DNA of 62,851 nucleotides from an uncultured bacterium (lineage in GTDB: Bacteria > Patescibacteriota > Patescibacteriia > Patescibacteriales > UBA12465), in assembly GCA_903945435.1 (NCBI GenBank), contig CAJAVM010000023.1, forward strand, positions 1 to 62,851, read 5' to 3'. Positions 34,332 through 37,395 of this stretch are shown here, piece by piece. The notes beneath the pieces were generated by a model that worked only from the letters and a program-made list of their open reading frames with translations, did not search any database and was not told the DNA's origin. The translations under genes were made by a program, and so were the position numbers. Numbering within the stretch: position 1 is the first letter of the stretch; each line of letters begins with the position of its first letter.

Positions 34332-37025
34332 TTAAAGTTCTTCTGCTTCTTCAACTGATATCTCCGCCTTATTATCAATTATTACTTGATCTCGACGTTT
34401 TAGCTCTCCAGCTAACAATTTATTAGCAATTACATCTTCAACACGCTCTTGCAATAATCTACGTAAAGGACGAGCTCCAAATTTAGGGTCATATCCTGCT
34501 TTTGCTAAAATCATAACCCCATCTTTATCTGCTTTCAGACCGATTCCTTTATCAGCTAGCATCTTTTTAATCTTTTTTAGCATTAGAGTAGTAATGGTAA
34601 AAATATTTTCTTCATCTAATGGTTTAAAAACAATAATCCCATCAAAACGATTAATGAGTTCTGGGCGCATATGTTCGCGTAACTGATTATCTATTAATTC
34701 CTGTTTAATCAAATTTAAGCTGGTTTTGGCCTTAATTTGGTCCTGAATAAAGATTGCGCCGATATTTGAAGTCGCTATGATAATTGATTCAGCAAAACTA
34801 ATAGTTCTTCCCTGACCATCGGTTAAGCGACCATCATCTAAAAGTTGTAGAAATAAATTTAAAATATCCGGATTAGCTTTTTCAATTTCATCTAATAAAA
34901 CTAGGGAGAAAGGTTTTTTCCTAACTGCCTCCGTTAGATAACCAAGAGTACCATCAACATCACCAATCATTTTTCTAATACTATCAGCTTGTTGGTATTC
35001 ACTCATATCTAAACGCACTAGATAATCCTCGCTTCCAAAATATATTTGTGAAACGGCTTTTGCGAGCTCAGTCTTACCAACACCCGTTGGTCCCAAAAAT
35101 AAAAAACTAGCAATCGGACGACGACTATCTTTCATAGCAGCACGCGCCCGACGCAAACTAGCAGAAACCGCTTTTACGGCTTCATCCTGACCAATTAGTC
35201 GCTCATGAATTTCGTTTTCAAGATGTAATAGTTTTTGACCTTCATCAACACCAACCTTGCTTGTAGGAATACCTGTTATTTCTGAAATTGCTAAAGAGAC
35301 ATCTTCTTTAGAGCAAAAAGATCTCTCTGGATTATTTTTACTAGCGGCTACTGCAATCATCACCGCTTTTTCTAATAAATTAATAGCTTTAAGAGGTAGA
35401 GCTTTATCATGCAGGTAACGCATCGACATTTTTACCGCTTGTTCGATGGCACTATAAACAATATAAATATCGTATTTTGATTCTAAAAAACCGACTCGAC
35501 TTTCTAGAATTTGAATAGCCGAATTTACATCAGACTCCTTAATGCCGATAGTAGTCATCGCTTCGCCCAAGGACTTATTTTCAATAAAACGGGAATAATT
35601 TTCAGTTGTCGCAGAGGCTAAGCATAAAATCTTCTTTCTATTTAAAGATTCAGCTAATACATCCGATAAATCTAAACTCTCTTTACTTCCCGCGCTAATA
35701 CCAATTAGATTTTCTATGTTATCAATATATAAAATAATATTACCAGAACGACTAGCCTCGTTAATACAGTCCAAGAGTCTTGCTTCAGCGGCTGACGGAT
35801 CAGCACCACTAATTAATTTAGAAACTTCTATTTCTACTAAACGCTTATCTTTTAAAAATGTCGGGACATTTTCTTCAACCATCATCTGAGCTAAGCCACC
35901 AATAATAGTACTTTTACCGACGCCAGTGGGCGAAACCAACAAAACGCCATTATGCCCACCAGTCAAAGCTTCAAAAATAGCCGTAATTTCTTTATTACGT
36001 CCAACACATAAATCAAGTTCGCCCGATTTAGCTCTTAAAGTTAAATCACGAGAAAAATGATCTAAAGAAGGAGTCGCGATTGCTGTATAAGAACGATTCA
36101 TCCCAGAGCCTGGTTTAAATAAAGCTGAGCGTCTATATTCATGATAACGTTCCATTAATTTCTTATTTACCCGAAACCACTCGACGGCGTTAATCATCTT
36201 ATCGTCATCAAGTTCTAAATCATACATTATTTCAGCTAAATTTTTATCATGACTATAACAAAAGATAATAATGTTTAACAAGTCAACACTTTTTTGATTT
36301 AGACTAAAAGCATTAGTAAAAGCTAAAACCAGAACTTCTTGCAAATTTCCAGAAATATCTTCTTCAACAACACTTTTATTTGTACTAGCAGATTTTACTA
36401 ATTGTCTATCAACCATTTCTATCATTCGTTTAGCATCAACATTAAGACGAATAAATAAACTCTGGACTTCCTTAGTTTTTAAAGCAGTTCTAAAAAAATG
36501 GATAATTTCTACTTGTTTTGTTCCTAATTTACCGGCCAAGAGAAAAGCATCATCTAAGACCTTTAACGCTTCATCAGAAAATGATTTAGCAACATTATAT
36601 CGTCTCACCGAATCATTCCTAAATTTTTTTTCGGTATTAAAAAGTTTATAATTTATTTTTTTAGCAGCAGCAATTTTTGCTCTATTTTTATAAATTAAAA
36701 ACAAATCAAACCACAATGAAATAAGAAAAAAAGAAATTAGAATATCAGACTCGACCCAGGAAAATAAAATCATCAAAGGGTTAGCTAAAAGCTCGGATTG
36801 ATGCAAAAAAATCCACAAAGCAAACATCGCCCAACCAGCAAAAATAATTAAAAAAGAAAAGAAACTTAAGATTTTATTAACTTGTTGATTAGTCCGCTCT
36901 AAAACAATTAAAGATTTTTTAATAGTTTTATCCCAATATAAAAATCGTCCCAAAAACCAAGCGCCCTTTCCTTTTCCGCCGCTATCTTGTACAAATTCAA
37001 TTTTCTCGTTCTGCTGTATATCCAT
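34332..37025 (-). CDS. Membrane-anchored Clp/Hsp100-family AAA+ ATPase (atypical paralog)
   Basis: Two N-terminal TM helices, Clp-N-like helices, D1 SPTGVGKS/YIDNIE, D2 [17 protein letters not shown] and GARPLRR. Confidence 0.85.
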   Translation of the reverse strand: MDIQQNEKIEFVQDSGGKGKGAWFLGRFLYWDKTIKKSLIVLERTNQQVNKILSFFSFLIIFAGWAMFALWIFLHQSELLANPLMILFSWVESDILISFFLISLWFDLFLIYKNRAKIAAAKKINYKLFNTEKKFRNDSVRRYNVAKSFSDEALKVLDDAFLLAGKLGTKQVEIIHFFRTALKTKEVQSLFIRLNVDAKRMIEMVDRQLVKSASTNKSVVEEDISGNLQEVLVLAFTNAFSLNQKSVDLLNIIIFCYSHDKNLAEIMYDLELDDDKMINAVEWFRVNKKLMERYHEYRRSALFKPGSGMNRSYTAIATPSLDHFSRDLTLRAKSGELDLCVGRNKEITAIFEALTGGHNGVLLVSPTGVGKSTIIGGLAQMMVEENVPTFLKDKRLVEIEVSKLISGADPSAAEARLLDCINEASRSGNIILYIDNIENLIGISAGSKESLDLSDVLAESLNRKKILCLASATTENYSRFIENKSLGEAMTTIGIKESDVNSAIQILESRVGFLESKYDIYIVYSAIEQAVKMSMRYLHDKALPLKAINLLEKAVMIAVAASKNNPERSFCSKEDVSLAISEITGIPTSKVGVDEGQKLLHLENEIHERLIGQDEAVKAVSASLRRARAAMKDSRRPIASFLFLGPTGVGKTELAKAVSQIYFGSEDYLVRLDMSEYQQADSIRKMIGDVDGTLGYLTEAVRKKPFSLVLLDEIEKANPDILNLFLQLLDDGRLTDGQGRTISFAESIIIATSNIGAIFIQDQIKAKTSLNLIKQELIDNQLREHMRPELINRFDGIIVFKPLDEENIFTITTLMLKKIKKMLADKGIGLKADKDGVMILAKAGYDPKFGARPLRRLLQERVEDVIANKLLAGELKRRDQVIIDNKAEISVEEAEEL

Positions 37026-37026
37026 A

Positions 37027-37395
37027 TTAAGAATTAATCTGGAAGAATAAAGCGATAATTAGAAAGAAAGGCAAAGCTAACCACAACATTGCCCCAATAA
37101 TCAAAATCCCTAACCATATTAAAAGCACTAGCCCTCTAAAAATAATCTGCAAAAACCTAATAATAAAACTAATGATACGACCGGCAATGTCATATTGACC
37201 ATACATGGGAACAAATAAATTTTTCATCCAAATACTAAAACCCAAAGATTGTTCCTGATTACGCAAAAAATTGAGCTCCTTTTTTAAAGTCTCAATAAAA
37301 CCAACGCTATACCACCAAAGAGGAAAATAAATAATCTCTCCAAGTGTTTGAAGGACTATCTTTCCGCTATAAGTTAAAAAATTATGCCTTAACAT
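37027..37395 (-). CDS. Conserved-looking hypothetical membrane protein, cotranscribed with the Clp paralog
   Basis: YFPLWWY and NLFVPMYGQYD..GRIISF pattern; stop 1 nt before the Clp ATG. Confidence 0.7.
   Translation of the reverse strand: MLRHNFLTYSGKIVLQTLGEIIYFPLWWYSVGFIETLKKELNFLRNQEQSLGFSIWMKNLFVPMYGQYDIAGRIISFIIRFLQIIFRGLVLLIWLGILIIGAMLWLALPFFLIIALFFQINS

Follow-up and report, generated by a model that had tools for sequence, protein, structure and literature searches.

A predicted membrane-integral Clp/Hsp100 ATPase of Patescibacteria and its small membrane partner

What use would a bacterium have for a two-ring Clp ATPase that is tethered to the membrane, has one ring apparently disabled and carries none of the usual aromatic residues in its pore loops? 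This question is raised by positions 34332-37395 of a contig from an uncultured patescibacterium of the lineage UBA12465 (CAJAVM010000023.1, assembly GCA_903945435.1; the window, that is, the whole stretch of DNA analysed, spans 62,851 nt), a segment that, according to the list of open reading frames (ORFs), is filled exactly by two minus-strand ORFs. The first in the direction of transcription encodes a small membrane protein, p122, and the second the ATPase, here called TM-Clp for its transmembrane (TM) anchor. A preliminary description, made from the letters of the window, took the ATPase to be no threading unfoldase and proposed a membrane motor or scaffold that might serve a pilus or a secretion machine. 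The answer we favour, with a probability of roughly 0.45, is that p122 and TM-Clp are two subunits of one membrane-integral Hsp100-type AAA+ machine, driven by its second AAA+ module (D2), that would remodel membrane or envelope proteins with a weak or non-processive grip.

The partnership of the two proteins is recorded in the genomes of their relatives. A profile scan of species-representative genomes with the N-terminal region of TM-Clp yielded 126 relatives, from which 80 Falkowbacteria loci were kept, and in 76 of these p122 lies directly upstream of the ATPase gene (within +/-8 kb). The same arrangement, with p122 immediately upstream of the Clp gene, was seen in 18 of 20 loci drawn from the class and the phylum and in all six further genomes in which the genes are split. 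Among 24 sampled genomes of the window's class, which we take to be ABY1 in GTDB naming, the profile of the TM-Clp N terminus and that of p122 match the identical 20; the remaining four contain neither gene, and none contains a single one. In other classes the association extends to gene fusion. In approximately 38 genomes the p122 match falls inside an open frame of ~680-950 aa, and all 14 long frames that we fetched (825-910 aa) carry a p122 domain at about residues 3-135 (hidden Markov model E-values of 1e-6 to 1e-18) and are two-ring Clps without an M domain and without an IGF loop. One of the fused proteins, B5M47_02610, is recorded as a "hypothetical protein" of candidate division CPR3, and a word-based homolog search with the N terminus of a fused protein returned two proteins only, one of them named CPR3. 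Such a fusion, of the Rosetta-stone kind, is strong evidence that p122 and TM-Clp work as one unit. By the genomic signs of adjacency, fusion and co-loss, p122 is thus an obligate partner of the ATPase, and the suggestion in the preliminary description that the 122-aa membrane protein is a real partner is upheld by the adjacency counts and by the fusions in other lineages.

Across the phylum, p122 was detected in 152 of 401 sampled Patescibacteria genomes (~38%). Three genomes that were p122-negative at the threshold of the genome search (loci L149, L151 and L152; genomes G010, G022 and G003) nonetheless encode highly divergent TM-anchored Clps, so that the 38% prevalence is a lower bound; at L149 a weak p122-like gene stands upstream (E 5e-8), and at L152 a weak p122-like domain is fused.

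A maximum-likelihood tree of 64 sequences, the product of a quick search with several long branches and with support from the Shimodaira-Hasegawa-like approximate likelihood ratio test (SH-aLRT) only, united the 44 p122-linked Clps without exception in a single clade (stem length 0.46, SH-aLRT 99) that excludes E. coli ClpA and ClpB as well as the sampled soluble ClpB-like and ClpC-like proteins of Patescibacteria. Within this clade, 26 of the 27 split forms fall into one sub-clade, and the base of the family is a polytomy. We compared 41 diverse members, 14 fused and 27 split. A signature linker, which adds about 19 residues after the N domain and ahead of the first AAA+ module (D1) and has the pattern G-[MV]-[ND]-[RK]-x-[MW]-T..TP.LD.FS.DLT, is common to all split and fused members and absent from ClpB. 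An M domain was found in none of the 41, nor in the window protein, nor in the consensus of its 120 close homologs, and the same holds for an IGF, LGF or VGF loop of the kind that docks ClpP. The window protein shows every feature that unites the family: linkage to p122, a TM anchor, the linker, absence of the M domain and the docking loop, and a place in the single clade. As judged from architecture and phylogeny, the p122-linked Clps are a Clp/Hsp100 subfamily in their own right, spread across the phylum and new in architecture. Our full-text searches of the literature returned no description of a membrane-anchored Clp/Hsp100 in the candidate phyla radiation (CPR), and a term search of a CPR protein-family paper found no such Clp/Hsp100 described there.

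A different, soluble Clp paralog of ~830-850 aa occurs in class genomes counted as being without p122/TM-Clp (L145-L148; genomes G208, G334, G238 and G192). It groups with ClpC-like proteins (SH-aLRT 95) and does not match the simple G.TG.GKT pattern for a D2 Walker A motif; G192 carries this soluble paralog plus TM-Clp.

By its domains, TM-Clp has the class I architecture of two tandem AAA+ modules, the second of AAA_2 type and followed by ClpB_D2-small. Pfam matches are AAA_2 (PF07724; 1e-51), ClpB_D2-small (PF10431; 3.4e-22) and AAA_lid_9 (PF17871; 7e-12), Pfam marks a second P-loop at residues 340-386, and both the D1 and the D2 folds are visible in the AlphaFold monomer model (predicted local distance difference test (pLDDT) 77; predicted template modelling score (pTM) 0.50). 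There is no Pfam match to Peptidase_M41 or to T2SSE (PF00437). All Clp equivalog models of NCBIfam stay far under their cutoffs: the highest-scoring is ClpB (TIGR03346) at 537 bits against a cutoff of 1232, with ClpA (TIGR02639) at 459 bits (cutoff 993) and ClpV/TssH (TIGR03345) at 412 bits (cutoff 885); no type VI secretion genes were noticed in the TM-Clp neighbourhoods, where no systematic search for them was made. The best relative in the PDB is B. subtilis ClpC (3J3T; E 1.6e-127). The N domain is of the Clp_N type (PF02861 is precomputed for the identical cluster and for most TM-Clp homologs) and occupies an atypical position, after the TM hairpin. Between it and D1, the signature linker is left disordered by AlphaFold, with pLDDT below 50 at residues 300-315, and conservation of 95% or more is reached by 54% of its columns in a set of 120 close homologs. 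These are full-length proteins of 65-87% identity, taken from a word-based search that returned more than 120; their source names, where given, are all Patescibacteria or Falkowbacteria, and they are annotated as "ClpC" or "AAA family ATPase".

Aligned with the ClpB encoded in the same window (54766-57405), TM-Clp retains the D1 Walker A motif (GVGKS) and has lost both arginine fingers of D1 (ALERRFQ to SLGEAMT, RR to EA), along with the Walker B glutamate and the usual pore loop (Table 1). The D2 module, ~50% identical to that of the window ClpB, has an intact Walker A (GPTGVGKT), Walker B (LLDEIEKA), sensor-1 (TSN), NRFD arginine and sensor-2 (GARPLRR). In its shortened pore loop, Thr-Leu stands where ClpB has Tyr-Val, and a conserved leucine is retained; Tyr696 is not a displaced pore tyrosine but aligns with the GG[YQ]LTE position after the loop. 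The M domain, ~130 aa in the window ClpB, is absent, as is the ClpP-docking IGF-loop insert in D2, where TM-Clp is 11 residues shorter than ClpC and ClpB. This alignment bears out the motif readings of the preliminary description, namely IDN in place of IDE and SGADPSA in D1, a D2 loop cut to GDVDGTLG without GYxG, no M domain or IGF loop, and an intact D2 Walker A/B and sensor; the loss of the D1 arginine fingers and the remnant of a zinc ribbon described below had not been listed.

The same state recurs among the 120 close homologs. In D1, 117 of them have D-N as Walker B and 115 retain the Walker A lysine; in D2, the loop IGD-x-DG-[TA]-LGYLTE hardly varies, and the catalytic motifs (Walker A and B, sensor-1 and sensor-2, arginine finger) are each present in 120/120. 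Columns conserved at 95% or more make up 68% of the large D2 domain versus 35% of D1. We read the changes in TM-Clp as selected features, and not as decay, chance or sequencing artefact, and D1 as a module that probably binds nucleotide without hydrolysing it. A decaying paralog, or a pure scaffold without ATPase function, could likewise have a dead D1 and two degenerate pore loops, but we regard this explanation as very improbable, given D2 catalytic motifs that are invariant in all 120 close and all 41 diverse homologs, a reading frame that is intact in all genomes examined, and retention of the pair across a phylum of minimal, ~1 Mb genomes.

Viewed over the whole family, D2 hardly changes along the lineage, in contrast to a decay of D1 and of both pore loops. 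The D1 Walker B glutamate is kept by 9 of the 14 fused forms versus 1 of the 27 split ones, and the D1 pore loop is without an aromatic residue in every member examined. In D2 the pore aromatic is retained in only 4 of the 41 diverse members, as GYAG (L105), GFAG (L111 and L112) and GYPG (L122), the others having Q, H, M or T at this place or a deletion of 4-6 residues with a Gly-rich or polar loop. Because a few members keep GYxG or GFxG, the ancestral protein was probably a threader that bound proteins at the membrane as substrates and actively unfolded them, and the window protein would be a derived form; the Clp_N domain, the zinc ribbon of many members and the GYxG or GFxG of a few count toward ancestral protein substrates.

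That zinc ribbon, a double CxxCxGxG motif, begins many split members and in distant split homologs lies ahead of the first TM helix, at the position where the window protein has only a remnant without cysteines and AlphaFold draws three short strands (residues 11-30). The two N-terminal TM helices of the preliminary description are borne out by hydropathy (peaks at 49-67 and 84-102) and by AlphaFold (helices 37-74 and 95-121), the sole sources of the TM assignments; the distribution of lysine and arginine agrees with them, with 8 in residues 1-50, none in 75-94 and 12 in 112-150. Together, these data point to an N-in, loop-out, C-in topology in which the N terminus and the ATPase are cytoplasmic.

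The partner, p122, matches no Pfam or NCBIfam family, and a Foldseek search of the PDB with its fold returned nothing at E < 1. AlphaFold models it with high confidence (pLDDT 90.9) as two long antiparallel helices, 6-51 and 70-121, the predicted TM parts being approximately residues 8-33 and 88-120. The tip of this hairpin carries a conserved, K/R-rich motif, KNxFxPMYGQxDxxGRxISFxxR, and, going by the model, should project into the cytoplasm. Among 1.84 billion proteins, the p122 family accounts for ~465 clusters at 50% identity.

Table 1. Features of the p122-TM-Clp locus, in window coordinates.
Feature	Position	Strand	Remark
p122	37027-37395	-	122-aa membrane protein; ORF
TM-Clp	34332-37025	-	897-aa membrane-anchored two-ring Clp/Hsp100 ATPase; ORF
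N-terminal cytoplasmic segment, aa 1-36	36918-37025	-	Cys-less zinc-ribbon remnant GGKGKGAWFLGRFLYW
Transmembrane hairpin, aa 37-121	36663-36917	-	two TM helices and a short outside loop; hydropathy, AlphaFold, charge
Clp_N-like double-repeat N domain, aa 150-302	36120-36578	-	alignment to the NCBIfam ClpA model begins at residue 152; modelled by AlphaFold as a helical bundle
Family signature linker, aa 303-330	36036-36119	-	KPGSGMNRSYTAIATPSLDHFSRDLT; ~19 aa longer than the ClpB equivalent
D1 AAA+ module, aa 331-565	35331-36035	-	Walker A kept, Walker B and Arg fingers lost
D1 pore-1 loop SGADPSAA, aa 406-413	35787-35810	-	AGAKFRGEF in ClpB; replaces the xKYRG-type loop
D1 Walker B codons, D435-N436	35718-35723	-	Asn replaces the catalytic Glu; LYIDN, LFIDE in ClpB
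D2 AAA+ module and small domain, aa 601-885	34371-35225	-	single catalytically competent ring by motifs
D2 pore-1 loop GDVDGTLGY, aa 688-696	34938-34964	-	5-residue deletion relative to ClpB; Tyr to Thr
Promoter-like site TTGACA-18-AATTAT upstream of p122	37482-37511	-	best match in the region, 10/12; consensus match only
Terminator-like hairpin directly after the TM-Clp stop	34302-34324		ACGCGUC-loop-GACGCGU; 7 bp, GC-rich; -13.7 kcal/mol, z = -2.8

From these features we infer an assembly, a stoichiometry and a class of substrates for the favoured machine. The ATPase would form a hexamer whose 12 TM helices, together with those of p122, build a collar in the membrane on the same axis as the ring; the N domain and D1, which make up the entry face, would be turned toward the inner face of the membrane, and the cytoplasmic hairpin tip of p122 would reach the N domain, the signature linker or D1. 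With the Walker A lysine kept and the Walker B glutamate and both arginine fingers lost, D1 may serve as a static, nucleotide-stabilised assembly ring, leaving D2 as the sole motor. Since there is neither a ClpP-docking loop nor a DnaK-docking M domain, the machine would act on its own, at the membrane. The shortened D2 loop, with Thr-Leu for Tyr-Val, leads us to expect a weak, short-range or non-processive grip. The likeliest clients, to be tugged at, released or taken apart, would be proteins of the membrane or of envelope biogenesis.

Several observations weigh against this reading. Neighbouring genes are not conserved outside the class, so that genomic context says little about substrates; the pore loops of most class members are polar or Gly-rich, which speaks for a non-threading mechanism and against polypeptides being pulled at all; a separate, intact FtsH already covers the extraction of membrane proteins; and the monomer model of TM-Clp is only moderately confident. 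The proposal of the preliminary description that TM-Clp is not a threading unfoldase holds in part. With no pore aromatics, a dead D1 and no M domain or IGF loop, the protein does not look like a canonical unfoldase, a disaggregase or a ClpP partner; that it does not thread at all is a further step, against which stand the GYxG or GFxG loops of the four relatives named above and the leucine kept in the window loop.

If threading has been abandoned altogether, TM-Clp might instead be a membrane switch or gate in which the N domain, the linker and the p122 hairpin relay the D2 cycle to a TM collar of up to ~24 helices and so open, close or power a conduit for cargo other than an unfolded polypeptide, for instance a lipid-linked precursor, a protein in its folded state or a molecule from the host. 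The pore aromatics have been lost repeatedly and in different ways (Q, H, M, T or deletion), no aromatic remains in the D1 pore loop of any member examined, no other accessory is as constant across the family as the TM collar and p122, conservation in the disordered linker is strong, and the long TM helices of p122 reach the cytoplasm in a shape like that of type-IV ABC exporters (with non-significant Foldseek scores), all of which would suit such a gate. We still consider it unlikely, because we identified no channel-like polar or charged TM residues and found no transporter homology, because the few members with GYxG or GFxG and the many with Clp_N and a zinc ribbon suit protein clients, and because no conserved neighbouring gene indicates a cargo. 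The broadest version of the idea, in which the p122-Clp unit is a new phylum-wide membrane machine with up to ~24 helices coaxial with the ATPase channel, a single working ring, aromatic threading abandoned in the window's class and several other lineages, and ATP hydrolysis spent on conformational changes of the membrane assembly itself, for example in the gating or transfer of non-polypeptide or folded cargo, is in our estimation similarly doubtful; if true, a gating or transfer machine of this kind could bear on the episymbiotic lifestyle.

The window genome (979 kb, 97% complete) encodes ClpP and FtsH (contig C10:5715-6284); a search with TIGR00382 found no ClpX in it, and it has no ClpA and no soluble ClpC. 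A candidate ClpX on contig C8, with a weak AAA_2 match, proved to be RarA/MgsA. The window ClpB, on the plus strand, has a full-length M domain and scores 1206 bits with TIGR03346, for which the cutoff is 1232, yet it carries a ClpC-type ClpP-docking loop, YSIGFN (KYVGFN in ClpC), with the IGF at ~56974-56982, and this IGF loop is invariant in 57 of 57 Falkowbacteria relatives. An IGF-bearing ClpB and a ClpP in a genome without ClpX, ClpA or soluble ClpC make ClpB the single candidate ClpP partner, and the engineered "BAP" variant would have in it a naturally occurring equivalent. TM-Clp is accordingly placed, by its motifs and by this inventory, as neither a ClpP partner nor a replacement for FtsH, but an addition to FtsH. 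A ClpP-coupled membrane protease analogous to FtsH, or a DnaK-coupled membrane disaggregase, would fit a genome that has ClpP and no ClpX and a protein that belongs to the Clp/Hsp100 family; we find it hardly credible in view of the missing IGF, LGF or VGF loop and M domain in every member and of the obvious alternative partner in ClpB.

In 58 of 58 relatives, clpB is preceded at a distance of 20-40 nt by a CIRCE/HrcA operator (54713-54739 in the window). The window genome has two CIRCE sites, neither near p122; co-regulation of the pair with clpB by heat shock is not supported in the window, where the p122 promoter region contains no CIRCE.

Could the neighbourhood name the clients? In Falkowbacteria the usual order is clpB on the opposite strand, 120-250 nt, p122, TM-Clp, wecA(-queH), an L,D-transpeptidase, a beta-propeller lipoprotein, a membrane protein and an HtrA-like gene, with the wecA-like gene found downstream in 67 of 80 Falkowbacteria loci and in 8 of 12 loci of the same class. 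In several families of the class, mraZ-rsmH-ftsL(-tgt) stands upstream of p122-TM-Clp and the wecA-like gene downstream (MraZ, RsmH, Tgt, L21, DnaB, RecR, UvrC and PrfB were named by eye, FtsL and the WecA-like protein by NCBIfam). This envelope context within the class counts in favour of the reading we prefer. Outside the class, the p122-Clp unit has no conserved neighbour. A dedicated regulator of envelope synthesis or division, with the WecA-like glycosyl-1-phosphate transferase or divisome proteins as its clients, would draw on the conserved order of envelope genes in Falkowbacteria and on the order mraZ-rsmH-ftsL-(tgt)-p122-TMClp-wecA-like in the window's class; regulation of this kind is familiar from the control of LpxC by FtsH and of MurAA by ClpCP. 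We think such a specialised role improbable: the synteny ends at the class boundary and the p122-Clp unit is phylum-wide, a hairpin and a convergent small ORF part TM-Clp from wecA-queH in the window, and the lack of a protease partner rules out regulation by degradation.

Loci L097-L108, from the window's class, have queuosine genes on both sides of the unit. Several families of the class have tgt upstream of p122, and on the downstream side queH either follows the wecA-like gene or is joined to it. The unit comes after mraZ-rsmH-ftsL in several of these families, at the point where the division and cell-wall cluster would normally go on.

The pilus is the neighbour that the preliminary description singled out, and in the window the divergence it had described is real: p122 faces a pilM/N-like gene (37505-38935; PF11104) at a distance of 110 nt. 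Among the genomes examined, this arrangement is unique to that of the window. Homologs of pilM/N, pilO, LytR_C, pilW and pilX are absent from all 80 Falkowbacteria loci (+/-8 kb). We extended the comparison to 120 related loci, the 80 from Falkowbacteria and 40 more distant ones, by BLAST of the proteins of the window pilus locus against the ORFs, with pilB, pilC, pilin and a peptidase-like gene added as queries. No homolog of pilB, pilC, pilM, pilN or pilO was found in any of the 120, and the pilus queries matched only three weak pilin-like ORFs in two loci. In most sister Falkowbacteria, clpB is the direct divergent neighbour of p122, whereas in the window a pilus locus of ~17 kb, which looks like a lineage-specific insertion or rearrangement, stands between the end of p122 (37395) and the start of clpB (54766). 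A motor or scaffold role in the type IV pilus or in other secretion could appeal to the window arrangement and to one distant locus (L115) with pilin-like ORFs just downstream. With clpB in the place of the pilus genes in sister genomes, and with a PilB ATPase of its own in the window pilus locus (50842-52563; T2SSE 1e-126), we hold this role to be highly unlikely; by the comparison of loci, the adjacency is an accident of a lineage-specific rearrangement, and the pilus or secretion proposal falls by the very test that the preliminary description had set for it, a lack of association with pilus genes in the genomes of relatives. Window positions 37505-54604 hold the type IV pilus locus and, at 54230-54604, an ORF resembling a response regulator.

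How does the proposed machine compare with known ones? ClpC (B. subtilis MecB; 3J3T, 3PXI), ClpA and ClpE share with TM-Clp the two AAA+ modules, a Clp_N-type domain, AAA_lid_9 and ClpB_D2-small, and ClpA also lacks a long coiled-coil insert; ClpE and ClpX start with a C4 zinc ribbon, as many members of the family do. Unlike them, TM-Clp has a membrane anchor, a membrane partner that appears obligate and an extra conserved linker before D1, is without the V/IGF loop, the D1 Walker B glutamate, the D1 arginine fingers and the pore-1 tyrosine, and falls into a separate clade. ClpB/Hsp104 is linked to TM-Clp by the top NCBIfam model and by the divergent orientation of the genes in Falkowbacteria, and is set apart by the membrane location, the dead D1, the missing pore tyrosines and M domain (and hence DnaK docking) of TM-Clp, which is also not under a CIRCE operator.

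In possible mode of action, and not by family, parallels can be drawn with membrane AAA+ proteins. FtsH and Msp1/ATAD1 have an N-terminal TM anchor that points the ring entry at the membrane, and a membrane-facing entry of this kind suggests membrane-protein clients for TM-Clp; they differ in having a single AAA ring with aromatic pore loops and, in FtsH, an M41 protease, and they lie outside the Clp/Hsp100 clade. Torsins, which act with LAP1/LULL1, are membrane-associated, Clp/Hsp100-related AAA+ proteins that have no aromatic pore residues and need transmembrane cofactors, features paralleled by the pore loops of TM-Clp and by p122. They are, however, single-ring, lumenal and eukaryotic and have no arginine finger of their own, and p122 shows no homology to LAP1/LULL1. 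That a two-ring Clp class with its own place in the phylogeny can go unrecognised has a precedent in ClpI, defined bioinformatically in Actinomycetota and comprising sub-types with and without a ClpP-docking motif, although ClpI is soluble, has an M domain of ClpC length and intact ATPase and pore motifs, and has no membrane partner (PMC10149685).

Approximately 38% of the sampled genomes thus retain a Clp/Hsp100 that would break several rules of its family: membrane-integral, with an obligate and unannotated partner and a pseudo-ATPase ring, with pore loops that are gripless in most lineages, and without coupling to a protease or to Hsp70. Patescibacteria (CPR) represent a large share of bacterial diversity, and in their ~1 Mb genomes nearly every retained gene is thought to be important. 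Database names such as "ClpC" or "ATP-dependent Clp protease ATP-binding subunit" are misleading for this family. Its members form a natural series, from fused, D1-active forms with GYxG to split, D1-dead forms with deleted loops, which could show how a threading motor is repurposed, and the Clp network of these organisms as a whole may be wired differently, as suggested by a ClpB that carries a ClpP-docking loop in a genome devoid of ClpX.

In the window itself, the two ORFs occupy the coordinates given in the preliminary description and look cotranscribed, as it had held. The TAA of p122 and the ATG of TM-Clp are separated by 1 nt, and no Shine-Dalgarno sequence was seen by eye before that ATG; the short gap and the lack of a visible Shine-Dalgarno sequence make translational coupling likely. 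Combined with the promoter-like site upstream of p122 and the hairpin after TM-Clp (Table 1), the spacing gives the pair the look of a bicistronic unit in the window genome.

The hairpin is common to TM-Clp and a convergent ORF of 61 aa (34092-34277, plus strand) that begins MNSDFGGKTDAILCIMANISALSKKLEKEKIK and has a strong GGAGGG ribosome-binding site. This ORF is kept at the same position in four relatives, at identities of 69% (L005), 48% (L013), 43% (L036) and 40% (L006), and it explains the gap of ~340 nt between TM-Clp and wecA-queH in the genomes that have it.

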